Shown: positions 47,972 through 64,000 of the stretch, in pieces
How the letters are laid out: each line of letters opens with the position of its first letter
How positions within the stretch are numbered: position 1 is the first letter of the stretch
Source: an uncultured Bacilli bacterium
GTDB taxonomy: Bacteria; Bacillota_I; Bacilli_A; RF39; UBA660
DNA length: 64,000 nt
Assembly (NCBI GenBank): GCA_947626095.1
Contig: CANQQV010000010.1
Coordinates: 1 to 64,000 of the forward strand
Reading direction: 5' to 3'
Position numbers and translations under genes: made by a program
The notes under the pieces: model-generated
The model's database searches: none
What the model was told of the DNA's origin: nothing
The model's input: the letters and a program-made list of their open reading frames with translations, nothing else

Positions 47972-48732
47972 AGTTCTATCAACTCACTTCGTTCTTTTTG
48001 GCGAGCGCATGAAACATTAGTAAAATCTATGTCATATTCTTTAAATACTTCTTTTAATGTTTCTAAGGCTTTTTCTTCAGTGTTGTTATGTTGAGACAAA
48101 TGGCTTAGTAAGATCTTTTTGGTATTTGGACCGATTATTTTAGCTAGATAAATAGCACTATCGCGATTAGATAAGTGACCATAAGGTCCAGCAACACGAT
48201 CTTTTAACCATTTAGGATATGGGCCATTCATTAGCATTTCGATATCGTGATTACTTTCAAATAAGTAAAAATCGAGATTACTAATTTTTTTAAAATATTT
48301 TTGGTTAATAAAGCCAGTATCAGTCATATAAAGCATAGATTTACCATTGCTCTTTAAGATGTAACTACGAGAATCAGAAGTATCGTGGGATGTTTTAATG
48401 ATATCGACAGTTAGATCATCTAAATATACAGCATCATCAAATAAAAGAATATTTTCATAGTATTTAAGATATTCTAGTTCAGAAAACATTTGGGGACTTA
48501 AACAAATAGTTGGTTTATATTTTTTTATTATATTTTTTAAAGCTTTGATATGGTCGTCATGTACATGAGTAATAAAGATATAGTCTATATCTTCTAAATT
48601 AACAGAAAGCTCAGAAAGTTGGTCTTTAATGTACTTAATTGTTGTTCCAGCATCTAATAATATTTTATGATTATCTGTTTCAACGTATGTTACATTGCCT
48701 TCTGAGCCACTTGCTAAATTACAAATTTTCAT
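47968..48732 (-). CDS. yycJ: YycJ/WalJ-like MBL-fold hydrolase
   Basis: LASGS.GN, TH.H.DH, TDTG, ESNHD..ML..GPYP..LK.R, GHLSN, HLS..NN motifs. Confidence 0.88.
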   Translation of the reverse strand: MKICNLASGSEGNVTYVETDNHKILLDAGTTIKYIKDQLSELSVNLEDIDYIFITHVHDDHIKALKNIIKKYKPTICLSPQMFSELEYLKYYENILLFDDAVYLDDLTVDIIKTSHDTSDSRSYILKSNGKSMLYMTDTGFINQKYFKKISNLDFYLFESNHDIEMLMNGPYPKWLKDRVAGPYGHLSNRDSAIYLAKIIGPNTKKILLSHLSQHNNTEEKALETLKEVFKEYDIDFTNVSCARQKERSELIEL

Positions 48733-50282
48733 TATTTCCATAACCTTAGTGGATTAATTGATTTACCACCATTGTATGGACGACCATTAAATAAACCAAA
48801 GTGAAGATGAACACCAGTTGCAACTCCTGTTTTACCCATTAAACCAATACGTTGTCCTCGTTTAACTCTCTGCCCTACAGAGACTATCATCGCACATTCA
48901 GAAGTTTTATATTGACGATATGGAACGTCTGTTTTGTACTTAGTAGACATGTGACCATATAAAGTATAGTAGCCATTATCATGTTCTATTACGACGTTAC
49001 AACCTGATGATTTACCAGCTATACCACCCCATCCAGCATTGATTACAACACCATCTAAAGCAGCATATATTGGTGAGTTATCACCAGTACCAGAAATATC
49101 AATACCATCATGGAATGAACCCCAACGCCATTCATAACCAGAAGTTATTTTGTAAGGATGGTTAGTTGGCCAATACCATTCACCACCTAGATCTAAAGGT
49201 TTACCAGTAATGCCACCACCACTTGAACGTTTTTTAGTTCCTTTAACAACTATCTTATTTTGAATATTACGAACTATAGATTCAGTTTTTAAATCAACAC
49301 GTTGTTGGTTTTCTTCACCGTTTATAAATTGGGCACGGGAAGAGATACGGCTTATACCGTTTATTCCTTCTTGGATAGTTTCAGAATAATCAGTATATTT
49401 AGTATTATCTTCTTGATAGACTGTTTGATATTGTTGTTCGACATCTTCAACAATGTACTCTTCATAAACAAAGGTTAAGACAGGGTTGATTAAGGATACG
49501 TCGAGTTTTTGACCTATAGCAAGTAAAGTATCAACACTTTTAATATTTTGATTAGCTATTAGTAATTCACTAGTATTTAATTTGTTATTTTCAGCGATTT
49601 TTTCGATGGTATCACCTTGAACAACCGTATATTCTTTAACATCATTATTTTCACCAAATAATAAGTATCTAGTTAAATCAGCAACATCAGTATATATTTT
49701 TTCATCAACACTGATATAGGCTTCTTTAATAGAAATATCTTCTTCAAATAACATTCTTTCAATTATGAAACCAGTATCTGATATTTCAGGTTGTAAACCT
49801 TCGATATACTGATTATAACGTTCTTCAGTAACGAAAGTCTTAGCCACGTTTTTAATAGCTTCTTCAAAAATAGATTTATCTAATACATAAATATATTTAG
49901 TAGGATTTTCTTCATCATCACTTTTAATAGTTATAGTATATCCCTTAATTGTAAAAGTTTTTTCGTCTTTAATATAATCATATACTTCTCTAGCAGATGA
50001 CAATTTTTCTTCAAAGGTATTTTTAGGGACAATTTGGAAGCCCTTTGGTGGATATACTTGATCAACTTTATATTCGTTTTTTATTTCACTTTGTTCTTCG
50101 TTAATAAGTTTGTATAATTCGTCTTTAGAATTAATTATCCCTATTTTTACACCATCTAAATATACTTGATATAAGTTATTAGGATTTTCACTATCATTTT
50201 CAAAAAAGAAGTTAAGGCCAAGAAGACCACCTAATAAAATAGTAAAGATAGTAGATAAAATAATACTTTTTGTTTTATGCAT
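48732..50282 (-). CDS. LysM-G5-M23 peptidoglycan endopeptidase
   Basis: N-terminal TM; YTV..GDT...IA LysM, G5-like V.KGTK, H.GID and HLHF M23 motifs. Confidence 0.9.
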   Translation of the reverse strand: MHKTKSIILSTIFTILLGGLLGLNFFFENDSENPNNLYQVYLDGVKIGIINSKDELYKLINEEQSEIKNEYKVDQVYPPKGFQIVPKNTFEEKLSSAREVYDYIKDEKTFTIKGYTITIKSDDEENPTKYIYVLDKSIFEEAIKNVAKTFVTEERYNQYIEGLQPEISDTGFIIERMLFEEDISIKEAYISVDEKIYTDVADLTRYLLFGENNDVKEYTVVQGDTIEKIAENNKLNTSELLIANQNIKSVDTLLAIGQKLDVSLINPVLTFVYEEYIVEDVEQQYQTVYQEDNTKYTDYSETIQEGINGISRISSRAQFINGEENQQRVDLKTESIVRNIQNKIVVKGTKKRSSGGGITGKPLDLGGEWYWPTNHPYKITSGYEWRWGSFHDGIDISGTGDNSPIYAALDGVVINAGWGGIAGKSSGCNVVIEHDNGYYTLYGHMSTKYKTDVPYRQYKTSECAMIVSVGQRVKRGQRIGLMGKTGVATGVHLHFGLFNGRPYNGGKSINPLRLWK

Positions 50283-51633
50283 TTTCATCTTCCTTTTCCG
50301 TCGCCAAATAATTTCTAAAATTACTCATGTTAAGCTCGAATAGTAATTGGAATTTACCAGTAGATCCTTTACGATGCTTAGCGACAATTATATCAGCGGG
50401 AACATTATTTTCTTTATTTAATTCAGTTTTAGCTTTGTAATAATCATTACGATTAATAAATAGAACTAAATCGGCATCTTGCTCGATTGAACCTGATTCA
50501 CGTAAGTCAGCTAACATTGGCTGATTATTTTCACGTTTTTCAGCAGTACGGTTTAATTGCGCTAAAGCAATTACGGGAACTTTTAATTCCATAGCCATCG
50601 TTTTAAAGGCACGGGAAATTTCAGATACTTCTCTTTCACGAGAATCTGGACGTTTACCACCACTAGTTACTAATTGTAGGTAGTCGATGATAACAAGCGC
50701 TAGCCCCTCTTCTTTATTAGCTAGATTACGGCATTTAGCTTTTATTTCAGCCGCTGTAATACCAGCATCATCAACAATTTGAATATTAGTATCAGCTAAC
50801 TGACTATTAGCTTCATTAATTCTTTTCCAATCATCATGGTTTAATTGACCCGTTTGAAGTTTTTTAGAATCTACTTGACCAACAGCTGAACGCATACGAT
50901 TAACTAGTTGTTCAGCTGGCATTTCTAAGTTAAAGATAGCGACAGCTTTTTTAGTATTTTTAGCAGCATTAACAGCAATATTTAAAGCAAAAGCTGTTTT
51001 ACCCATACCAGGACGGGCAGCAACGATGATAAGTTCACCTTCATGTAAGCCAGATGTTGTTTTATCTAAGTCATAGAAACCAGTTGGAACACCAGTAATC
51101 TCTGATTTGTTTTTAGATAGTAATTCTAGTTGTTCTTGAGCTCTAGCAACAGCATCTTTAATATGGATAAAGTCGCTCGTTTGACGCTCTTTAACAACAT
51201 TTAATATTCTTTTTTCAGCTTCATCTAAAGTACGAGTAACATCTTCGTCTTCTTCGTAAGCATCTGTTACGATATCAGTAGCTGTTTCAATTAAGTTACG
51301 CATGATAGCTTTATCTTTGACTATTTTAATATAGTAATCAAGGTTTGCAGCAGTAGCAACTGAATCGATTACTTCGCTGATGTAATCAATACCACCAACG
51401 GAAGATAAGTTTTTCTTTTTATCTAATTCTTCTTTTATAGTTGTTATATCAATTGGTATTTTATTTTCGTAACAACTTTTTATTGCAGCAAATAACTTTT
51501 TATTGGCATCACTATAGAACATGTCTTCATATAGTTCATCACAAATTTTTGTAACGGCATTTTTATTTAAGAATGCAACACCTAAAACACTCATTTCTGC
51601 TTCTAAGTTTTGGGGCATTTTTCTTGTTGGCAT
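50275..51633 (-). CDS. dnaB: Replicative DNA helicase
   Basis: AARPGMGKT, IDYLQL, QLNR, DLRESGSIEQDAD motifs. Confidence 0.98.
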   Translation of the reverse strand: MPTRKMPQNLEAEMSVLGVAFLNKNAVTKICDELYEDMFYSDANKKLFAAIKSCYENKIPIDITTIKEELDKKKNLSSVGGIDYISEVIDSVATAANLDYYIKIVKDKAIMRNLIETATDIVTDAYEEDEDVTRTLDEAEKRILNVVKERQTSDFIHIKDAVARAQEQLELLSKNKSEITGVPTGFYDLDKTTSGLHEGELIIVAARPGMGKTAFALNIAVNAAKNTKKAVAIFNLEMPAEQLVNRMRSAVGQVDSKKLQTGQLNHDDWKRINEANSQLADTNIQIVDDAGITAAEIKAKCRNLANKEEGLALVIIDYLQLVTSGGKRPDSREREVSEISRAFKTMAMELKVPVIALAQLNRTAEKRENNQPMLADLRESGSIEQDADLVLFINRNDYYKAKTELNKENNVPADIIVAKHRKGSTGKFQLLFELNMSNFRNYLATEKEDENA

Positions 51634-52200: not shown

Positions 52201-52512
52201 CTATTTGTTTCCCATTGCATCTGTAATTTGTGAACCAACTTTAATATCAGCTTCTTCATTACGATTAGTAACTGTATAAATATGATTTTTCATTGTAACA
52301 ACATTACTATAGAATACTTCGTAATTTCTTCTTAATTCTTGATAACGAGCATTTGCTTCTTCAGCTCCACTACTACGCCACCCTTCGCCATATAAGCTGT
52401 TCATTGTTGTATCTATACCATCAAAAACTCCTTGAATATTATCAGCTATTCCTTTGATTGTATCAGCATATGATCTTGCTGATGCATAGTCAGATTGTTC
52501 AAATTCGTTCAT
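52201..52512 (-). CDS. WXG100-like protein
   Basis: 103-aa helix-turn-helix pattern with central W (GEGWRSSGA). Confidence 0.75.
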   Translation of the reverse strand: MNEFEQSDYASARSYADTIKGIADNIQGVFDGIDTTMNSLYGEGWRSSGAEEANARYQELRRNYEVFYSNVVTMKNHIYTVTNRNEEADIKVGSQITDAMGNK

Positions 52513-52526
52513 ATAATATTTCCTTT

Positions 52527-52832
52527 CTATTGTTCAAATAAATTTTTTCCCTCTTGGGCATTTTGTTCTTCAGTTTCGTTTAAAGTATTTGCTCCACTTG
52601 AAATTGTTTCTCCTAATGTATTTATTAAGGCTTCAAATTCATTAAGATTATTTACTTGAGCATCTACTGATGTTCCAAAATTATTTGCAGAGTCACCACG
52701 CCAAATATCTAATAATCCTTCTTTATTTCTTTGTAATTGTTCTATTTGATCGTGTAATTGATTTGCATATTCTACTGTTTTTCTTCCTTGTTCATCCATT
52801 ACTTCTGGAGATACATATAGTCCGTTTGCCAT
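52527..52832 (-). CDS. WXG100 family protein
   Basis: V.PE N-terminus and central WRGDSA; about 100 aa; start moved to 52832. Confidence 0.85.
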   Translation of the reverse strand: MANGLYVSPEVMDEQGRKTVEYANQLHDQIEQLQRNKEGLLDIWRGDSANNFGTSVDAQVNNLNEFEALINTLGETISSGANTLNETEEQNAQEGKNLFEQ

Positions 52833-52931
52833 TTTGCACATCCTCTCTCTATTTTATTTATATCATATTTTGATTTGGCTTTAAAGATTTTTTACTTTTT
52901 GTTTACATATTATCTGGGCCTTTTTATCTTA

Positions 52932-53837
52932 TTAGGCTGTTTGCTCTTTTGCGGTGTCTTCAGAATTATTTTCTTTATATAAAATTGATTTAGCTTGTTC
53001 AGTCACTATAGTTTTGGTTTCGGCTTCAACATTTTCTTTTTCATCAGCATCATCTGCTTTTTCATCTTTTGACTCAGTATCTTCTTTAGTGTCAGCTAAA
53101 GTATCTTTGTATTCCTCAAACATCTTCTTTATTGTTTTTTCTTCTTGGTAGCCTTCAAGTTCTTTTAGAACTTTTCCATTTTTTACTAATGATATTGTAC
53201 TTTCTTTATCGGTTGTTTCGACGAAAGTAACTGGAATTTTATTAGCAATAGCAATTTCTGTGACCATAGCGATGTACTCTTGATTTTTTTTTTCTTTACT
53301 ATTTGCTTTGATAACAAGAGTTGTCTGATCTTTGATTTTATCTTCTAAATCTTTTTCTTCGATAATATTAAATAAACCTGCGGTAATTAATGAAGCAAAT
53401 AGTGGAGTTTCAAATAAATTAACTGTTTCTGGTTCAGTTACGACACCACCATAACCTACGTAACCACCATAGCTACTAGAGCCGTTATATCCGCCATTAT
53501 TATTACCATAATTAAGAGAATTATTTTGACTATTTGTTTCTTGAGGATTATTATTTGGTTCTTCACTTGGGCTAGATTCAAACTTCATGCCATTTTGTAA
53601 GTTTGTATGCGATGATACAACGCTTTTTAAAACGTTCATAGTATTAGAGACTTTAGTGGCACATGCATCAAGATTATTAGCTATTGATGTTTTGGCAGTA
53701 GCAAAATCAAAACCATCTTCATTACTTGTATCATAGCCGCTAACGCTATTTTTAGTTTCTTTAACATTGTTTGCGATAGTATTTAGGGAATCAGCTGATC
53801 CAGTTACACTATCTGTATTTAACATGAAAACTGTCAT
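52932..53837 (-). CDS. WXG-like N-domain, G/Y/N linker, Cys-less thioredoxin-like domain and acidic tail (family D, copy 2)
   Basis: N-terminus paralogous to 55757..56680 (YD..N.DGF.F..AK, VVS.HT.LQ); C-terminal VKNG segment. Confidence 0.7.
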   Translation of the reverse strand: MTVFMLNTDSVTGSADSLNTIANNVKETKNSVSGYDTSNEDGFDFATAKTSIANNLDACATKVSNTMNVLKSVVSSHTNLQNGMKFESSPSEEPNNNPQETNSQNNSLNYGNNNGGYNGSSSYGGYVGYGGVVTEPETVNLFETPLFASLITAGLFNIIEEKDLEDKIKDQTTLVIKANSKEKKNQEYIAMVTEIAIANKIPVTFVETTDKESTISLVKNGKVLKELEGYQEEKTIKKMFEEYKDTLADTKEDTESKDEKADDADEKENVEAETKTIVTEQAKSILYKENNSEDTAKEQTA

Positions 53838-53860
53838 ATTATTTCCTCCTATTTTATTAA

Positions 53861-54388
53861 TTAATTTTTATTGCTTAGTTTAGGAATTGATTGAGGAGCA
53901 TAAGCACTAATTGCCTCTCCTGAGAAATCAGTTTCAGAAATAGCTGTTGCTGTTAATGTTTTACTAGAAGCTTCATTAAGAGCATTATTTATTTCAGTTG
54001 TTAAATCGTTTTTTATTTGCGTGTAGTCGGTGACCTTTTTCTGCCAACTTGAAATTTCGCTAGAATAATCAGTGGTATATTCACCTTTTTCATTTTTAGT
54101 TCGACTGTTTTGACAATCGTTATAATAATTTAACTTTTCGTTAGCTGTTTTAAGATTGGCTTTGTTTTCTTCATATTCTTTGTATTTATCACAAGCCTTA
54201 GCAAAGGCTTCCATTTGTTCATCAATTGTTGGAAAAAATTCACTTATAAAACTTTGAGTTTGAGATGTTAAACTATCATATGAAGATCCTTGCCATGAAC
54301 CATTAATACTTTCTAATGATGAAGAAAAACTATCTTTGGCTGTAGATATTTTATCTTTATCTCCTCTAACTACATCACTGCTAACCAT
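53861..54388 (-). CDS. WXG100/LXG-like carrier without catalytic domain (family C, copy 2)
   Basis: MVSS..V.GD and WQG.S.D motifs; paralogous to the N-half of 57289..58209. Confidence 0.78.
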   Translation of the reverse strand: MVSSDVVRGDKDKISTAKDSFSSSLESINGSWQGSSYDSLTSQTQSFISEFFPTIDEQMEAFAKACDKYKEYEENKANLKTANEKLNYYNDCQNSRTKNEKGEYTTDYSSEISSWQKKVTDYTQIKNDLTTEINNALNEASSKTLTATAISETDFSGEAISAYAPQSIPKLSNKN

Positions 54389-54441
54389 TTTGAATCGCCT
54401 CCTAGATTACCTTCTATAATATATTTTATCATTCGAATAGA

Positions 54442-54483
54442 ATGTTGACAATTTTTTTATTTAATAAAATGGATGTTGACAAT
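54442..54483. repeat. 11-bp direct repeat ATGTTGACAAT (31-bp period) in the divergent promoter region
   Basis: Copies at 54442-54452 and 54473-54483, each containing TTGACA. Confidence 0.8.
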
Positions 54484-54594
54484 AGATAGGTATTTATTTA
54501 CTTTGAGATGTAAAATTTTAGTTCTTTAGGAATATTTATAGCATTTTCTTATTTAAAATGATAAACTGAAAGTAGTAATAATAGGAGGGTATTT

Positions 54595-54882
54595 ATGGCA
54601 AAATATGTATGTGATTTTGAACAAGTCACTTCTATTGGAGATGAAGTATGTAACTTAGTTAGTGATACACGAAGTGCGTTAGATACTTATTCTTCTGGTA
54701 TTGAAAATAATTTATCTTCTTGGTCTGGAGACGCGAAATCAGCATTTTCTTCTACTAGCTCTTCAGTAGTAACGCAAACTAAGACAGATTTGGAATATGT
54801 TACAGCTCTAGGAAATTATATAAAAGCTTGTGCTCAAGCAGTTCAAACGGTTGAAGAGAAACTGACAGAGATGAAAATTTAA
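54595..54882 (+). CDS. WXG100 family protein (family A, copy 2)
   Basis: MAKYVCDF start and central SWSG; 95 aa; strong RBS AGGAGG. Confidence 0.85.
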   Translation: MAKYVCDFEQVTSIGDEVCNLVSDTRSALDTYSSGIENNLSSWSGDAKSAFSSTSSSVVTQTKTDLEYVTALGNYIKACAQAVQTVEEKLTEMKI

Positions 54883-54899
54883 AAGAAAGGAAATGTAAC

Positions 54900-55679
54900 A
54901 TGGCAGATTATGGATTTAGCGATTATGCTATTTTTGATGAAGGTTATGGAACAGTTAATAATTTAAAAGGTAGTTTATCAACAAATACTGATGATATTAA
55001 TAAATGTAAATCCGAATTAAATAGTGAAGCTGTATTTATGGGGCCAATGTGTGATTCATGTGTTGAAGGATTTGATAGTACTAATGCTTTTTTAGTATCA
55101 GTTACTAATAATTTTGATAAAATCGCTTCTTATTTAACGGAAATATCAACAGCTTATAAGAATGGTGATGAAAATGCTTCTAAAAAGATTTTAGGTATTG
55201 AAGGTGGCGTTGTTGAGACTAGGACAAAAACTGTTATAACAGGAGATACAACGCAAGATCAAATATTTAATTATCTAAAAAATGAAGGATTTAATAATGC
55301 TGCTATTGCTGGTATTTTAGCAAACATGGAATATGAGTCTGGATTTAAGACTACTGTATATGGTGATGGGGGAACGTCTTATGGGTTATGTCAATGGCAT
55401 TCAGGAAGATTTACTAATCTTAGAAATTATTGTAGTAATAATGGTCTTGATTATACTTCTGTTGAAGGCCAAATGTCTTATTTGATGTATGAACTTAAGA
55501 ATAGTTATCCTGGTGTTTATAATTATATTAAAAATGTTCCTAATACTAAGCAAGGTGCTTATGATGCCGCTTATAAGTGGACTGTTTCATTTGAAATACC
55601 TGCTAATAAAGAATCTTCAGGAGCAAAACGAGGTAATACTGCTCAATCTAAGTATTGGGAAAAATATGGGGATGCATAG
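54900..55679 (+). CDS. WXG-like (FMG) carrier fused to a phage-tail-lysozyme-like domain (family B, copy 2)
   Basis: FMGP..D.C and YxxxD (YKNGD); C-terminal AGILAN...ES, YGL.QW...R, A.......FE.P lysozyme motifs. Confidence 0.85.
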   Translation: MADYGFSDYAIFDEGYGTVNNLKGSLSTNTDDINKCKSELNSEAVFMGPMCDSCVEGFDSTNAFLVSVTNNFDKIASYLTEISTAYKNGDENASKKILGIEGGVVETRTKTVITGDTTQDQIFNYLKNEGFNNAAIAGILANMEYESGFKTTVYGDGGTSYGLCQWHSGRFTNLRNYCSNNGLDYTSVEGQMSYLMYELKNSYPGVYNYIKNVPNTKQGAYDAAYKWTVSFEIPANKESSGAKRGNTAQSKYWEKYGDA

Positions 55680-55712
55680 AATATACTTCTAGCCAATAAA
55701 TTTAAGATATTT

Positions 55713-55744
55713 AAAAAAGCAAATATTTTTCTATTTGCTTTTTT
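55713..55744. terminator. Bidirectional terminator between convergent island halves
   Basis: AAAAAAGCAAATA-TTTTTC-TATTTGCTTTTTT. Confidence 0.8.
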
Positions 55745-55756
55745 CTTTTTAGTTTA

Positions 55757-56680
55757 CTATATAGTAGAAGTCTCTTTTTCTTTTGGTGATTCATTACTAT
55801 TTGTTTTATCTTCTTCTTTTTTTTCTTCTGGTAACTTTTCATTATTTGGAGAATCTTCAGTTTTTTCTTCTACTTTCGCTTCATCGGCTTTATCTTCAGC
55901 GGTTGAATCACTTTCATCTGGTAAAGGTTCAATTTCTATTTCTTCATCCTCAACATCGACATTTACTTTATCAAACATTGCTTTGATAGCATCAATGTCA
56001 GTTAGTTCTGTTGTTGAAGCTAAAACAATACCATTTTTAACGATGCATAGAGATGATTCGACATCCTCTTCCTCTTTTTCGTTGATTACTAAATCAATAT
56101 CATATACTTTGGATAGTTCTTCGGCTAGTTCAAGTTTCTCTTTGTAGTTATCATCTTTTTTACTTAAAGTTAGAACTAATACTTTTTCTTTTATCATATT
56201 TAGTTTTTCAATAGTATCTTCTGTAAATAAATCTCCAGCCAATAGTTCTTTTAATACAGCTAAAGAGATTGCGTCAGGCACAAATACTTTACCACTTGGG
56301 CCTGTTACGGTTTCTTCGTTGAATGTTAATCCACTGGCGCCATATGCACCACCAGAGCCACCGCCATAGCCGCCATATCGACCTGATTGGTAGCTAACTG
56401 TTCCGTTGTTAGATTGGCCACCGCCATTAATAGATTCTTGTAATTCTGTATGAGTACTAACAACTTTTTTTAAGTATTGATTTGTTAGTCGAAACTTAAT
56501 ATAAGCGCTAGATACATTAGTAGAAACTGCATCTTTAGCACTGCTAAAATTAAAGCCATCATCATTTTCAACATCGTATTTACTAACACTACGCATAACA
56601 TCACGAGCATTGGTAGAAAGTTCTTTTAATGAATCAGCAACGGAATCTACAGCTCCTGTATCTAAGAGAAATTTGGTCAT
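55757..56680 (-). CDS. WXG-like N-domain, Gly-rich linker, Cys-less thioredoxin-like domain and acidic tail (family D, copy 1)
   Basis: Paralogue of 52932..53837. Confidence 0.7.
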   Translation of the reverse strand: MTKFLLDTGAVDSVADSLKELSTNARDVMRSVSKYDVENDDGFNFSSAKDAVSTNVSSAYIKFRLTNQYLKKVVSTHTELQESINGGGQSNNGTVSYQSGRYGGYGGGSGGAYGASGLTFNEETVTGPSGKVFVPDAISLAVLKELLAGDLFTEDTIEKLNMIKEKVLVLTLSKKDDNYKEKLELAEELSKVYDIDLVINEKEEEDVESSLCIVKNGIVLASTTELTDIDAIKAMFDKVNVDVEDEEIEIEPLPDESDSTAEDKADEAKVEEKTEDSPNNEKLPEEKKEEDKTNSNESPKEKETSTI

Positions 56681-56697
56681 TATTTTACCTTCTTTCT

Positions 56698-57270
56698 TTA
56701 TTCGTAATGAATATTATCCATAACTACAGTTAAGGCTTTGTCTAAAGTTTTAATTATTTCATCATTATCTAAGTCTTGAACATTTTCTAACAATTTGAAT
56801 CTTTCATTTACAGCATATGGACCTGATGCTATAGATAATTGACAAAATTCATTTGTTTTATCGTTAATAAAGTATGCTGTTATTTGGCGAACAAAGTTTA
56901 ATTTATCCATAGTTCCCAATAAAATATCTTGAAGATAGATTTTAAAAGGAATATTTTCTTTTTGATAAGCTTTAAAATATAGCATACATTTTTTGTTTTT
57001 ATATAATTCATTATTAGCAATAGTATCTTCAATTGAATTATTTACTACTTTTATATGATCTTCAAATGTTTCATCGTCTTTTAAGATGCCATCATTGAAA
57101 AATTGTTCTAAAGTATTTTGATTTTTAGCAACAAAGAAGTTATTTTCATTTTCTTTGCTTTGCGCAACTATTTCAAATCCATCTAGGATAGGAATTATTA
57201 AATTTCCTTCTTCTAATTCTTGATTTGCTTTATTAGCAATATCTAATATTATATCTATTTTATCGTTCAT
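56698..57270 (-). CDS. Hypothetical protein, candidate immunity or accessory factor
   Basis: 190 aa, no signal peptide; lies directly after the C39 effector-like gene. Confidence 0.65.
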   Translation of the reverse strand: MNDKIDIILDIANKANQELEEGNLIIPILDGFEIVAQSKENENNFFVAKNQNTLEQFFNDGILKDDETFEDHIKVVNNSIEDTIANNELYKNKKCMLYFKAYQKENIPFKIYLQDILLGTMDKLNFVRQITAYFINDKTNEFCQLSIASGPYAVNERFKLLENVQDLDNDEIIKTLDKALTVVMDNIHYE

Positions 57271-57288
57271 AATAATTCTCCTTTATTA

Positions 57289-58209
57289 CTAAACAGTGAA
57301 TGAGTACATGGCAGCTTTAGATTCGCGTGCAATTAAGGATGCATCATAAGATCGACCACTTCGATCACGGCTTGCTGGATCGGCGACGATAACACGACCA
57401 TTTTCATCTAAGCCTCTTAAAACAATATAGTGGCCTCCTCTAGTAAAGGTACCAGGTCCCATATGAGCAATAATAACTTTTCCTTCGGAAAGGCTTTGAA
57501 CAATATTCTGAGCAGTAGGACTTTGTTCTTGACATTCTATACCATAGGTACTTGCCATCGCAGGGAATAAAGCAGCATATGTACCATTTCCTTCACAACG
57601 ATAGCCGTGTTGTACACTATAAGCCGATGTGTCTACTGGAGTAATTGTTTCACCTGTTATATAAGTTAAAACCATTGCCATTGATGTTGGACCACAACCT
57701 GAAGAAGCAATTGTTCCACTACGACCATAAGAATAATTACGATAATCACCTTGATAATAGTTAACAAAGTCATTTAAAGTAACCATGTTTTTGTAAGCTT
57801 CGACTGTAGATTCCGCGCTTGGTAATTTTTGAGAAGTAACATTAGATAAAAGGCTATTTATTTCTGATTTTAGACTGCTCATGCGGTCAGCATAATTATC
57901 TATTTGATTACGATAATATGATTTATTTTCTTCTGAGGCACTATAATAACTTGATTCAGCTGATTCTTTTGAAGCTTTGGCTGATTTATATTCTTCGTAT
58001 TTATTTAAAGCATTAGCAAAGTTTGATAATTGAGATATGATTGTCTCTTTATACTCAGAAACGAATTCTGATGACAAATTAGTGGCATTATCTTTAGATG
58101 GTCCTTGCCATACGGAATCGTTATTAACAGAATCCATTTGTGAAGTATAGTTTGAGAATAATCCTTGTAAGGTTTGTGAATCGCCATTTACTGTTCCACT
58201 TGATACCAT
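57289..58209 (-). CDS. WXG100/LXG-like carrier fused to a C39-like papain-fold peptidase (family C, copy 1)
   Basis: WQGPS; C-terminal Y.Q, SGCGPTS.AMV, GHYIVL, DP (Cys-His-Asp). Confidence 0.85.
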   Translation of the reverse strand: MVSSGTVNGDSQTLQGLFSNYTSQMDSVNNDSVWQGPSKDNATNLSSEFVSEYKETIISQLSNFANALNKYEEYKSAKASKESAESSYYSASEENKSYYRNQIDNYADRMSSLKSEINSLLSNVTSQKLPSAESTVEAYKNMVTLNDFVNYYQGDYRNYSYGRSGTIASSGCGPTSMAMVLTYITGETITPVDTSAYSVQHGYRCEGNGTYAALFPAMASTYGIECQEQSPTAQNIVQSLSEGKVIIAHMGPGTFTRGGHYIVLRGLDENGRVIVADPASRDRSGRSYDASLIARESKAAMYSFTV

Positions 58210-58628
58210 TAGACACTACCTACTTTCTCGCCAACATTTTTATCGCTTTCACTGTAAGATTCGCTATTATCGCTTAATACTCGAGCACTTGTATCAAGGC
58301 TAGTATTTGTTGATACAGTTAATTCTGATAAACCATTCCATGTACCATAGCAGTAATCAGCGAATGGTCCCATAAAGGTACTTTCAGTAAAAATGTCATT
58401 AATAACTTTATTACATTCATTAATACTTTCATTTACGTCTTTAACTGCGCTTTCGATATTTTGAACACCACTAGATAAGTCAGTATAATCAGCTTTATAA
58501 TTTGTTTCACCAGTTATGCTAGTATTTTGAGTATTGATTGTTCCAAGTCCTGTGTTGGATGTTAATGAGCTAGTATCCGTACTATTTAGTTGACTATTAT
58601 TACCTAAATTTTCATTTTCTATTGCCAT
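58209..58628 (-). CDS. WXG-like (FMG) protein without catalytic domain (family B, copy 1)
   Basis: FMGP.AD.C and YxxxD (YSESD); paralogous to the N-domain of 54900..55679. Confidence 0.78.
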   Translation of the reverse strand: MAIENENLGNNSQLNSTDTSSLTSNTGLGTINTQNTSITGETNYKADYTDLSSGVQNIESAVKDVNESINECNKVINDIFTESTFMGPFADYCYGTWNGLSELTVSTNTSLDTSARVLSDNSESYSESDKNVGEKVGSV

Positions 58629-58643
58629 ATTTTCACATCCAAT

Positions 58644-58931
58644 CTAAAACTTTAAAGCTGCTAAAGAGTTTTCGGCTTCTTCTATTTTCCCAACACTATC
58701 TTTAATATAGTTAGACATCTGTCTCATTGTTTCTATTTGTCCTTGTAAATTAGTAGTTATTGCATCACTACTATTTTTATAGCTTTCAGAGGCACGGCCA
58801 GTCCAACTTACTAAATCGGAGTCTAATTTACTTTTTTGAGATGTTACATTACCATTTAAATTTGAAAGTTCACGATCTAAAGTATCACAATAAGATCTAA
58901 TCGCATCAAAATCACATACGTATTTAGCCAT
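58644..58931 (-). CDS. WXG100 family protein (family A, copy 1)
   Basis: MAKYVCDF start and central SWTG; 95 aa. Confidence 0.85.
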   Translation of the reverse strand: MAKYVCDFDAIRSYCDTLDRELSNLNGNVTSQKSKLDSDLVSWTGRASESYKNSSDAITTNLQGQIETMRQMSNYIKDSVGKIEEAENSLAALKF

Positions 58932-61798: not shown

Positions 61799-62617
61799 TT
61801 ATAATGCTTTATTGTTATTTTCAGATATATTTACACTTTGATTAAATTTTTCTAAGCATGTTTTAACTTCTGGATCTAAAAAGCTTAATGCTCTTTCTTT
61901 TATTTCTTCAGGAATACCAAAAAAGCTTTCGGCAATTGATCCGGTCATACAGGCTAAGGTATCAGCATCTCCGCCTAAACAAATAGCGTTTCTTATTGAA
62001 TCTTCAAAATCTGTTCCTTCTAAAAATGATTCTATTGCTTGGGGAACTGAACCAGCAGCACTAATATCATATTTATATTTACGATGAATAGCAGGAATTG
62101 TAAAATCTAATTGATAAAAATTATCTTCAATGTATTTTCTAATATCCTCTTTTGTCGCACCATTTCGGGCTAAAAAAATACATGCAGCAATGGCTTTTGC
62201 ACCTTTTATTCCGTCTGGATGATTATGAGTTATAGAACATTGGGCTTCAGCTAATGTTAAAGCTTCTTCAAGAGTGTCGGCAACATAGGCGACTGGTGCA
62301 GTACGCATCGCGCCACCATTAGCATAACTATTGTAAGGACCCATTTTTTCATCTTGTAGCCAATCAAAGAATCTATAACCATATCCAGCATCGGGATACT
62401 TATTTCCTAATCGTCTCATTTCACTTTCGGCAACTTTTTTAAATTCTTCGAGATTTTTTGTCTCTTTGTATTTTATACAGGCTAAGGCAATAGCGCAAGT
62501 CATTACTGTATCATCGGTAAAAAAGCATCTATCTTTAAAAAATTTAAATTCTTTTTGTTTAATAGTTCTAAATTCATATACAGAACCAACTATATCACCA
62601 ATTATTGCTCCATACAT
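61799..62617 (-). CDS. ADP-ribosylglycohydrolase (DraG/ARH family)
   Basis: GAI.GD..G..YEF, TDDT, NG.AMR, TH.H, GGDADT motifs. Confidence 0.93.
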   Translation of the reverse strand: MYGAIIGDIVGSVYEFRTIKQKEFKFFKDRCFFTDDTVMTCAIALACIKYKETKNLEEFKKVAESEMRRLGNKYPDAGYGYRFFDWLQDEKMGPYNSYANGGAMRTAPVAYVADTLEEALTLAEAQCSITHNHPDGIKGAKAIAACIFLARNGATKEDIRKYIEDNFYQLDFTIPAIHRKYKYDISAAGSVPQAIESFLEGTDFEDSIRNAICLGGDADTLACMTGSIAESFFGIPEEIKERALSFLDPEVKTCLEKFNQSVNISENNNKAL

Positions 62618-62931
62618 AGACTTTTCTCACTTTCCTCTGGCGAGAGATATTTAGTAAAATCTTCGATATCTTCGTTGTTAAAATATATTTTTTGCAATTC
62701 ATTATTTCTTTTGACTAATCCTTGATAGTCATAAAATACTTTATTATATATGGCATATTTGTGTTCGATAATTACTTCTTCGCCAGAAAGTAATTTTACA
62801 ATTGTTCCATTAGGAATGTGAGGTTTAGCAGTAGCATCTTCTATTTGCTGTACGTCAATACCTTCACCTTTAAACTCTGAAATATCAGTTTCAAATCTTT
62901 CTAAGTTTTTATTTGGTTCTAAATTATCCAT
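62602..62931 (-). CDS. Small acidic hypothetical protein, candidate toxin immunity
   Basis: 109 aa; starts 1 nt after the toxin stop and overlaps the ARH start. Confidence 0.7.
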   Translation of the reverse strand: MDNLEPNKNLERFETDISEFKGEGIDVQQIEDATAKPHIPNGTIVKLLSGEEVIIEHKYAIYNKVFYDYQGLVKRNNELQKIYFNNEDIEDFTKYLSPEESEKSLCMEQ

Positions 62932-62932
62932 C

Positions 62933-64000
62933 TTATTCGCCTCCTGTTAATAAACATTTTACCACAGTTACAAGTTGTTTCCCATTCATTTTTTCTTGCT
63001 TTGGTGGAGCTATTATTGTTAGTTTTGTTCCAGTTCCAAGTAAAACTTCATTTTGATAATAAGTTGTTACGCCAGATAACGGTTCAATATATGCAGCGTT
63101 ACTGTTAGCGGGAACAATAATGTCAATTCTTATTTTGCCACCTGAAGGGGATGCAGCAAAGAAATTACTGATGTCTTCGACTGATGATGTAGTACTAAGG
63201 AAAGCATCATTTTGTAATTCCATTCCAACTTTTAAATCTTTTAATTTTCTAGCACCATTAAAATCTGTCGCCATACGGCTAACAGTGATAGTTTCACCAA
63301 TTCTATTATTATTTATAAGTTCAGTTAATTGACTAGCATTATGAACCGTAGGATCATATACGACACTATCGCCAAAAGTATCTTTAAATAATCTTGTATA
63401 TAGTTCCTTAATTTGTTCATCATATGGTTTTGTGCTATCGTAAAGATCACTGCTTCCCATAATATTTATATATAATTTTTTCATTTGCTCTTCACTAGCT
63501 TGAACTCCTGGTGAACTAGCCTTAACTAAACTGCATCCAGTCATTGATTCAGTATATATTCTAACCATATCTTTTTGAGCAGGAGTAGCATTAGCTATTA
63601 ATCGACTAACGTATCCATTATTATAATCATCCATTAGTTTATTTAATGTTGCAGCATCATCGTCAGATAAATATTTAATAATTAAATTAGAATAGCCTAA
63701 AATATCAACATCTGAGTTACATTTGGGAAGATTTTTAACTATACTCCATATTTCGTCTAATTCTGATTGACTTTTTTTGGTAAATTGTAATATTTCATAA
63801 AATTCTTTATGAAATGCTCCTTCTGTTGAATTGTTTTGCCAAGCATTAGTAGCTGCTTTAGATAGTTTATTTACTAGGCTTTGACTTAAACCGAATTTAT
63901 CTTTTAATATTCCATTTGTTAAATCATATAGCTGTGGAGCTGGTGTACCAAATAAAGCTCCAACACCCGCTCTTGAAGATAATTGAGTTATATCAATGCC
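62933..64000 (-). CDS. 5'-partial large protein with C-terminal VIP2/C3-like ADP-ribosyltransferase domain
   Basis: Manual translation shows the frame open from the window end (GIDITQLSSRAG...) to 62933; motifs VSR, FLSTTS, YIEPLS and QNEVLL. Confidence 0.85.
   Translation of the reverse strand, partial: GIDITQLSSRAGVGALFGTPAPQLYDLTNGILKDKFGLSQSLVNKLSKAATNAWQNNSTEGAFHKEFYEILQFTKKSQSELDEIWSIVKNLPKCNSDVDILGYSNLIIKYLSDDDAATLNKLMDDYNNGYVSRLIANATPAQKDMVRIYTESMTGCSLVKASSPGVQASEEQMKKLYINIMGSSDLYDSTKPYDEQIKELYTRLFKDTFGDSVVYDPTVHNASQLTELINNNRIGETITVSRMATDFNGARKLKDLKVGMELQNDAFLSTTSSVEDISNFFAASPSGGKIRIDIIVPANSNAAYIEPLSGVTTYYQNEVLLGTGTKLTIIAPPKQEKMNGKQLVTVVKCLLTGGE

Follow-up and report, generated by a model that had tools for sequence, protein, structure and literature searches.

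What is an eleven-gene cluster for, when ten of its genes encode the same kind of helical domain and some of them add a putative enzyme to it? The question is raised by positions 52201–58931 of contig CANQQV010000010.1 (here C10) from an uncultured Bacilli bacterium of the RF39 lineage (GCA_947626095.1), whose genome (G000) comprises 1.6 Mb in 34 contigs and is 91% complete; "the window" denotes the whole stretch analysed, the 64,000 nucleotides of this contig. A first-pass annotation, made from the sequence without database searches, had proposed an undescribed assembly of WXG100 proteins, which are substrates and carriers of type VII secretion systems (T7SS), that delivers cell-wall-active enzymes. 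Our analysis suggests that the island is probably an accessory substrate module of an EssC-driven type VIIb system (T7SSb), by which it would deliver wall hydrolases.

The island spans 6.7 kb and is flanked by rplI/dnaB and murD/murC. All eleven open reading frames (ORFs) of the earlier annotation are present at the positions given below. Named O1 to O11 from left to right (O2 and O1 are also called E2 and E1), they comprise two diverged copies, sets 1 and 2, of four families A to D, together with the EsxA/EsxB-like O2/O1 pair and the non-helical O8:

58644..58931, minus strand: O11, family A set 1, 95 aa (amino acids), WXG100-like with WTG (WXG100 3.3e-5, TIGR03930 2e-7)
58209..58628, minus strand: O10, family B set 1, 139 aa, helical domain 40–139 with FMGP and YSESD, without cargo
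57289..58209, minus strand: O9, family C set 1, LXG-like helical N-domain 1–145 (WQG) and C39-like cysteine peptidase 149–279
56698..57270, minus strand: O8, 190 aa, cytosolic, Mog1/PsbP-like fold, putative partner of the C39 protein
55757..56680, minus strand: O7, family D set 1, WXG-like hairpin 1–90, Gly-rich disordered linker, thioredoxin-fold domain at about 122–240, acidic tail
54900..55679, plus strand: O6, family B set 2, helical domain 1–100 (FMGP, YKNGD) and phi29-gp13-type lysozyme 118–252
54595..54882, plus strand: O5, family A set 2, 95 aa, WXG100-like with WSG (WXG100 4.6e-5)
53861..54388, minus strand: O4, family C set 2, 175 aa, helical, WQG, without cargo
52932..53837, minus strand: O3, family D set 2, hairpin followed by a low-complexity linker and a domain of thioredoxin-like type; paralog of O7, aligning over the C-domain as well
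52527..52841, minus strand: O2 (E2), canonical WXG100, WRG, 38.5 bits
52201..52512, minus strand: O1 (E1), WXG100 with the variant motif WRSSG, 29.0 bits

Helical domains and the enzymes joined to them

A WXG100-type helical domain is confirmed in ten of the eleven ORFs, O8 being the exception, on the combined strength of Pfam matches, paralogy between O6 and O10, matches between families A and D, and a structure model of O7. The gathering cut-off of the Pfam WXG100 family (PF06013, 27.3 bits) is passed by O1 (29.0 bits) and O2 (38.5 bits); below it lie O11 (24.5 bits, 3.3e-5), O5 (24.0 bits, 4.6e-5), O10 (18.2 bits, 3e-3) and the two family C proteins O4 (16.5 bits, 0.011) and O9 (14.3 bits, 0.05). 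NCBIfam agrees with these assignments. The same Pfam search gave no PF06013 match for O3, O6 or O7, and for O3 and O7, the family D proteins, no match to any Pfam family. In an all-against-all BLASTP comparison of the eleven ORFs, however, each family forms a pair: O11 and O5 (family A) are 29% identical (3e-17), O10 and the N-domain of O6 (family B) 28–29% (7e-12), O4 and residues 1–129 of O9 (family C) 29% (1.3e-19), and O7 and O3 (family D) 29% across their full length (1.8e-33). Family D is in turn connected to family A, both by a BLASTP match of O11 to the O7 N-terminus (2e-6) and by profile-profile alignment with hhalign (probability 90%, E 1.7e-6). The O7 model folds into a hairpin of helices 8–33 and 46–86; EsxA structures are among those on which it superposes, together with many generic hairpins. 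The first-pass annotation had read these domains of about 100 residues from the sequence and assigned them to the WXG100 superfamily, and on the superfamily our results bear it out. Five of the 16 WXG100 matches in the genome fall inside these 6.7 kb of 1.6 Mb, and their clustering is therefore not due to chance.

The motifs that had first drawn attention to the island can be read as reported, namely WRG (O2), WSG (O5), WTG (O11), WQG (O4 and O9), FMGP (O6 and O10), YKNGD (O6) and YSESD (O10). O1 has WRSSG rather than WxG, and the sequences of O3 and O7 contain no WxG. Across homologs these positions are strongly conserved: W43 of family A is retained in at least 90% of 18 members, W34 and G36 of family C are invariant in all 20 members, and F85, G87, Y125 and D129 of family B are invariant in 19 of 19. 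Family B thus possesses an FxG turn together with a YxxxD motif, noted earlier in its two island members alone, at the position of the T7SS "export arm" (PMC9600955). The family of O4 and O9 has an LXG-like architecture, with a helical N-domain and variable C-terminal cargo. A hydropathy scan found no transmembrane (TM) segment or signal peptide in any of the eleven proteins.

Two of the cargo domains are predicted, from their families, to cut peptidoglycan. Residues 118–252 of O6 are a Phage_lysozyme2 domain (PF18013; 1.1e-35, 123.3 bits against a cut-off of 28.2), for which the closest solved relative is the phi29 tail enzyme gp13 (PDB 3csr, 5.8e-9), and E146 of O6 aligns with E45 of gp13, which we take to be catalytic. 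Residues 149–279 of O9 are a Peptidase_C39_2 domain (PF13529; 5.5e-19, 69.6 bits against a cut-off of 24), whose triad C172, H260 and D277 is invariant in 20 of 20 relatives; a PDB sequence search with O9 gave no match. The C-domain of O7 has a thioredoxin fold according to its structure model and Foldseek, but neither O7 nor O3 contains CxxC, so that they are not redox thioredoxins. The first-pass list of cargoes, a lysozyme-like, a C39-like and two Cys-less thioredoxin-like domains, therefore stands, and family membership supports its view of them as cell-wall enzymes.

The relatives of the O9 peptidase place it in a wider context. Among the best 80 loci from a search with the family C alignment, 9 matched at full length and 71 in the C39 domain only, and most of the latter have an N-terminal TM helix. 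The closest C39 relatives outside the lineage (L041–L111; from Clostridia, Paenibacillus, Desulfosporosinus and others) are 45–50% identical to that of O9 and form part of proteins with a TM anchor, about 275 or 414 aa long. At all three loci examined, these proteins are encoded within conjugative type IV secretion system (T4SS) clusters, alongside VirB4-like and VirD4 ATPases and RepA_N. This is a setting expected of a machine-associated wall hydrolase, and they are probably the wall hydrolase of a Gram-positive conjugation system family.

O8 is a candidate inhibitor, immunity protein or chaperone of the C39 protein. Its Mog1/PsbP-like fold matches Tsi3 and TplEi, immunity proteins of type VI secretion systems (T6SS), and also Eag chaperones. 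A homolog of O8 adjoins the gene for a C39-bearing family C protein in 13 of 13 loci and is found in 0 of 5 module loci whose C protein lacks C39. In an exhaustive profile search of 1.84 billion proteins the O8 family had 141 representatives, compared with 10 close matches in a word-based search, while an ESM Atlas search with O8 returned no usable match. O8 domains are sometimes fused with DUF4272 or DUF6508 in long proteins; a literature search on DUF4272 found no paper. For cargo types other than C39, no immunity-gene candidate was seen in the module loci.

The link to EssC and the module in relatives

EssC is present in this genome and linked to the module in relatives. The first-pass annotation saw no EssC in the window, which is true but largely an effect of the contig edge; a genome-wide search finds two canonical EssC proteins, at C2:41516–46192 and C5:3972–8552, whose scores of 977 and 917 bits exceed the TIGR03928 equivalog cut-off of 778.4, so that the machine is not missing. 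Each gene is followed by a small gene of 85–89 aa and then by WXG-like and large toxin-like genes, including one for a DUF4176 protein. In G010, a genome of the same genus whose EssC is 62% identical to the C5 EssC, a single contig carries L9, the module, MurD, MurC, an ADP-ribosylglycohydrolase (ARH), an ADP-ribosyltransferase (ART) and other large proteins, and continues through five small helical proteins and a small ubiquitin-like (UBL-like) gene to EssC and rpsR-ssb-rpsF. C10 and C5, joined tail to head, are collinear with this contig, and each has a minus-strand ORF at the junction, one entering C10 at its end and the other running off the start of C5; the C5 EssC is therefore most probably located across the contig break, about 10 kb rightward of the island. 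In G146 the linkage is direct: A-B-C(CHAP)-D(LysM/Hydrolase_2)-E2-E1, an EssC of 1506 aa and a YukD-like gene are contiguous, the small gene beside EssC having a weak ubiquitin-like match (1.1e-4). EssC was found in 11 of 11 module-bearing genomes searched, against a baseline of 104/201 in the order; as EssC occurs in 26 of 26 genomes of the genus, the comparison within the genus is uninformative.

The earlier suggestion of a distant or non-canonical export machine thus holds in part. With a canonical EssC probably some 10 kb away the machine is not distant, yet no model for EssB, EsaA or YukD is matched. In this 91%-complete genome EssB/YukC, EsaA/YueB and YukD/EsaB had no match at E ≤ 1, although divergent homologs are possible, and neither PF10140 nor TIGR03929 scored over its cut-off in any of 101 genomes of the order (0/101 each). 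A 409-aa gene upstream of the C2 EssC was considered as EssB and rejected, as it has no TM segment and no family match. The two EssC loci (C2:28740–47504 and C5:1–8552) also hold large proteins of 550–925 aa without family assignment, beside the WXG-like and DUF4176 genes.

A search with O7 (family D) detected the module in 7 of the 26 other genus members and in 1 of 34 genomes outside the genus; G028 and other genomes that are at least 90% complete lack it. G005 and G010 have only set 1 and the O2/O1 pair at the same site, G014 has both sets, as here, and the location between dnaB-rplI and murD-murC is kept in relatives with 40–50% protein identity (L036, L037). More distant metagenome-assembled genomes (about 40% identity) retain all families in shuffled gene order. 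The most conserved member is O1, 47–91% identical across relatives, and O2 occurs in every module locus examined save those cut by a contig end.

What varies is the cargo. Across 18 module loci it consists almost wholly of peptidoglycan hydrolases, and at least eight families of these ride on B, C or D in relatives, in keeping with the "mix-and-match" arrangement of the first-pass annotation:

Family B cargo: lysozyme, glucosaminidase or C39
Family C cargo: C39, NlpC/P60 with ELLD, CHAP, M23 or alpha/beta-hydrolase
Family D cargo: thioredoxin-like, CHAP, C39, NlpC/P60 or LysM with Hydrolase_2

A conserved N-terminal trafficking domain with variable C-terminal domains, as defines polymorphic toxins, is therefore seen in all three families. 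O4 illustrates the exchange: with 175 aa it reaches no further than its helical domain and stops 24 bp short of O3, whereas its ortholog in G014 (46% identical, 322 aa) carries NlpC/P60 and ELLD; a cargo has thus been lost here or gained there.

Further C-family proteins occur outside the island. A third one in this genome (C9:22539–23603; L121:6540–7604), of 354 aa with NlpC/P60 cargo, is solitary, with no A, B or D gene nearby. At L122 (G190:C4:4723–8298) three C-family proteins stand in tandem with alpha/beta-hydrolase (esterase/Peptidase_S9-like) cargo, the sole cargo seen that is not a peptidoglycan hydrolase; genes for B-C39 and B-lysozyme adjoin them. The full-length C alignment was also tried as a module marker across the order, where it matched 52 of 201 genomes, 34 of them also with EssC in a hand comparison, and proved unspecific: its high-scoring matches in genomes without EssC are different C39 proteins, about 300 aa long, and at 9 of 9 loci examined no module family member (A, B, C-N, D, E1 or E2) lies nearby. 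The co-occurrence test with EssC was dropped for this reason.

Two neighbouring features of the window were recorded. To the left, positions 48732–50288 (minus strand) encode a 518-aa LysM, G5 and Peptidase_M23 protein, whose gene overlaps the end of dnaB and is conserved in relatives. To the right of murC, a cassette at 61799–64000 and the head of contig C5 looks like a T7SS toxin with an ARH-type antidote, and the matching position in G010 holds a 762-aa ART protein and an ARH:

61799–62617, minus strand: ADP-ribosylglycohydrolase (2.2e-34)
62602–62931, minus strand: 109-aa ORF
62933–64000, minus strand: C-terminal part of a protein cut by the contig end; ADP-ribosyltransferase exoenzyme domain (1.8e-10)

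A scan for promoters and terminators gave 44 sites against 39.2 ± 5.8 in shuffled sequences, that is, no excess; two extended -10 sites are well placed upstream of O11 and O4, which at this shuffle-level rate is not evidence.

Proposed function and alternatives

We propose that A, B, C and D assemble in the cytoplasm through their helical domains, which would lie next to one another in an elongated pre-secretion bundle. Its composite signal for EssC would be made up of the WxG turns (A and C) and the YxxxD export arm that is invariant in B, as in LXG-Lap1-Lap2 and EsaD-EsxBCD. The enzyme domains would hang off the C-termini of B, C or D and would be exported folded, with no Sec signals: here the muramidase of O6 (gp13-type) and the cysteine peptidase of O9 (C39-like), and in relatives also glucosaminidase, NlpC/P60, CHAP, M23 and SleB-like domains and LysM. 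Outside the membrane they may cut glycan and peptide bonds of peptidoglycan, whereas O8 may bind the C39 domain before secretion and keep it harmless or export-competent.

Several observations weigh against this scheme. The majority of the WXG100 matches in the island score under the Pfam cut-off; hhalign gives a probability of 41–42% for A against B and A against C, with the WxG/FxG turns aligned; neither O4 nor O9 matches the LXG family PF04740 at E ≤ 1; and the 13.7 bits (E 0.071) of O10 against Lap1/DUF3130/TIGR04197 fall under the cut-off of 26. The module occurs in 7 of 26 genomes of the genus (D query) and EssC in all 26, so that T7SS function as such does not depend on the module. In G005, which has the module, there is a single EssC, and this does not adjoin it. 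The scheme offers no role for the thioredoxin-like domains, it takes the peptidoglycan activity of the cargo from family membership only, and the cytosolic O8 could not shield the wall from an enzyme arriving outside.

That last point bears equally on a classical polymorphic toxin, in which O9 would be an LXG-type toxin with a C39 domain acting inside target cells on proteins or cytoplasmic wall precursors, O8 its immunity protein and the other helical proteins export helpers: a cytosolic O8 argues against simple immunity to attack from outside, although cytosolic location and strict linkage to C-C39 (13/13 loci) are what an immunity protein for an internal target should show. The likeness of O8 to Tsi3 and TplEi, the fusion of its domains with DUF4272 and DUF6508 in the manner of poly-immunity proteins, the variable cargo on a conserved N-domain and the Tox-PL-C39 toxin domain in the list of Zhang et al. 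(PMC3482391) also fit such a toxin, but the fold of O8 includes Eag chaperones as well. Moreover, the nearest C39 relatives are membrane-anchored in T4SS clusters, the place of wall hydrolases, with a basic stretch before the TM helix that suggests an outward-facing domain, and all other cargoes of the family are recognised peptidoglycan hydrolases or binders, none with an O8-like neighbour. We consider an intracellular toxin unlikely on this balance.

Export of housekeeping autolysins, by which the T7SS of small genomes would carry the cell's own wall-remodelling enzymes for growth, separation or T7SS assembly, as with EssH, appears quite improbable to us. It agrees with the position kept at 40–50% protein identity, with the adjoining M23/LysM/G5 protein, with a T7SS that has no recognisable EsaA and EssB, and with the need of the Staphylococcus aureus T7SS for the dedicated hydrolase EssH (PMC13059805). 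The patchy distribution (by the D query, 7/26 in the genus; few genomes across the order sample; and absence from G028 and other genomes at least 90% complete) argues against a module essential for secretion, and cargo type and copy number differ between close relatives, unlike those of housekeeping genes. Least credible by far is a phage-tail or conjugation remnant with no tie to type VII secretion, which the first-pass annotation had named as the finding that would undo its proposal. The O6 cargo does match PHROG tape-measure and endolysin families (5.6e-23) and gp13, and C39 relatives do occur in T4SS clusters, but it is the cargo domains alone that match: no named PHROG function was found for the nine other proteins, O3 having one weak match to a family of unknown function. 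In addition, no integrase, T4SS or phage structural gene lies in the island or its flanks, relatives have the module at the same position, ten of the eleven proteins are of WXG100 type, and in G146 the module directly abuts EssC.

If the island is a T7SSb substrate module, as we favour, its target would, we lean to think, be the wall of a competitor, for lysis or for the entry of co-secreted toxins such as the neighbouring ADP-ribosyltransferase, although it could be the producer's own wall, opened to let T7SS cargo out. A more specific version, which we offer tentatively as possible but doubtful, is that in a T7SS without recognisable EsaA, EssB or EssH the four-part WXG bundle is a secreted "drill", as opposed to a fixed conduit, which leaves EssC with a glycosidase and a peptidase on separate arms and opens the peptidoglycan of producer or neighbour for co-encoded toxins. 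How effectors cross the peptidoglycan of producer and target is described as an open problem in reviews of T7SSb (PMC10765036, PMC13492133), and within the sources used here EssH of S. aureus is the only prior link of T7SSb to wall hydrolysis. The module represents a natural design in which T7SS-substrate domains bear wall hydrolases of many families as fusions, and these are conserved together with an EsxA/B-like pair. If exported as predicted, these enzymes would constitute a new, bacteriolytic class of T7SS antibacterial effectors or a wall-opening accessory of the system, and a drill would provide a direct handle on how T7SSb cargo crosses Gram-positive walls. Our results also document, in uncultured gut Bacilli, T7SS loci that have EssC and in which neither EssB nor EsaA can be recognised.

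Comparison with known systems

The first-pass annotation called the assembly undescribed, which applies to its enzymes more than to its principle. Composite helical targeting complexes have been published for LXG-Lap1-Lap2 (PMC9600955, PMC10801868) and EsaD-EsxBCD (PMC10653861), but no description of wall hydrolases fused to WXG or LXG domains was found in the titles and abstracts searched, which did not cover subscription journals, and a search on RF39 and type VII secretion found nothing related. In the portion of the list of Zhang et al. (PMC3482391) used here, toxin domains of the NlpC/P60 and glucosaminidase kinds are assigned to T6SS and PVC and not to T7SS. The anatomy of the module matches that of the published T7SSb pre-secretion complexes LXG-Lap1-Lap2 and EsaDEG-EsxBCD.

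Like EsaD-EsaE-EsaG-EsxB-EsxC-EsxD of S. aureus, as reported in the parts of PMC10653861 used here, the island combines a cargo protein bearing a helical N-domain with three small helical partners encoded beside it and a globular protein that binds the cargo (putatively O8), the set lying at or near the EssC locus. The island cargoes are predicted wall hydrolases, whereas that of EsaD is a nuclease; they may sit on any of three subunits, two or three of which can bear enzymes at once, and partner D is a protein of about 300 aa with a domain of its own. At the level of sequence families, nothing in the island was seen to match EsxC, EsxD or EsaE, and the island assembly is proposed from sequences.

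The Streptococcus intermedius complex of LXG with Lap1 (DUF3130) and Lap2 (DUF3958), according to the portions of PMC9600955 and PMC10801868 consulted, is likewise an elongated helical targeting unit. One partner has a motif of the export-arm type close to where helix 2 ends, FxxxD in Lap1 and, as a functional analogy only, YxxxD in family B, and the other partner has a WxG/LxG turn. The island differs in having four families rather than three and in that family B can bear an enzyme, while Lap1 is reported there as not exported. At the sequence level, O4 and O9 have no PF04740 match, and O10 reaches 13.7 bits against the TIGR04197 cut-off of 26.

EssH uses a Sec signal, whereas the island enzymes lack signal peptides and are joined to domains of the T7SS-substrate type. 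What they share is a functional tie between a peptidoglycan hydrolase and a T7SSb locus, EssH being a CHAP wall hydrolase required for the S. aureus T7SSb (PMC13059805).

Beyond T7SS, the closest parallels are of the enzymes themselves. The O6 cargo has the catalytic domain of phi29 gp13 (PDB 3csr/3csq, 5.8e-9), and the O9 cargo that of the TM-anchored C39_2 proteins of clostridial T4SS clusters (45–50% identity), with which the island shares the pairing of a glycan-cutting with a peptide-cutting activity. The carrier is what differs: a tail protein or a membrane anchor in those systems, a WXG-type helical domain in the island. The same C39-like wall enzyme has moved between the two secretion systems, with a membrane anchor in T4SS and a WXG fusion in T7SS.

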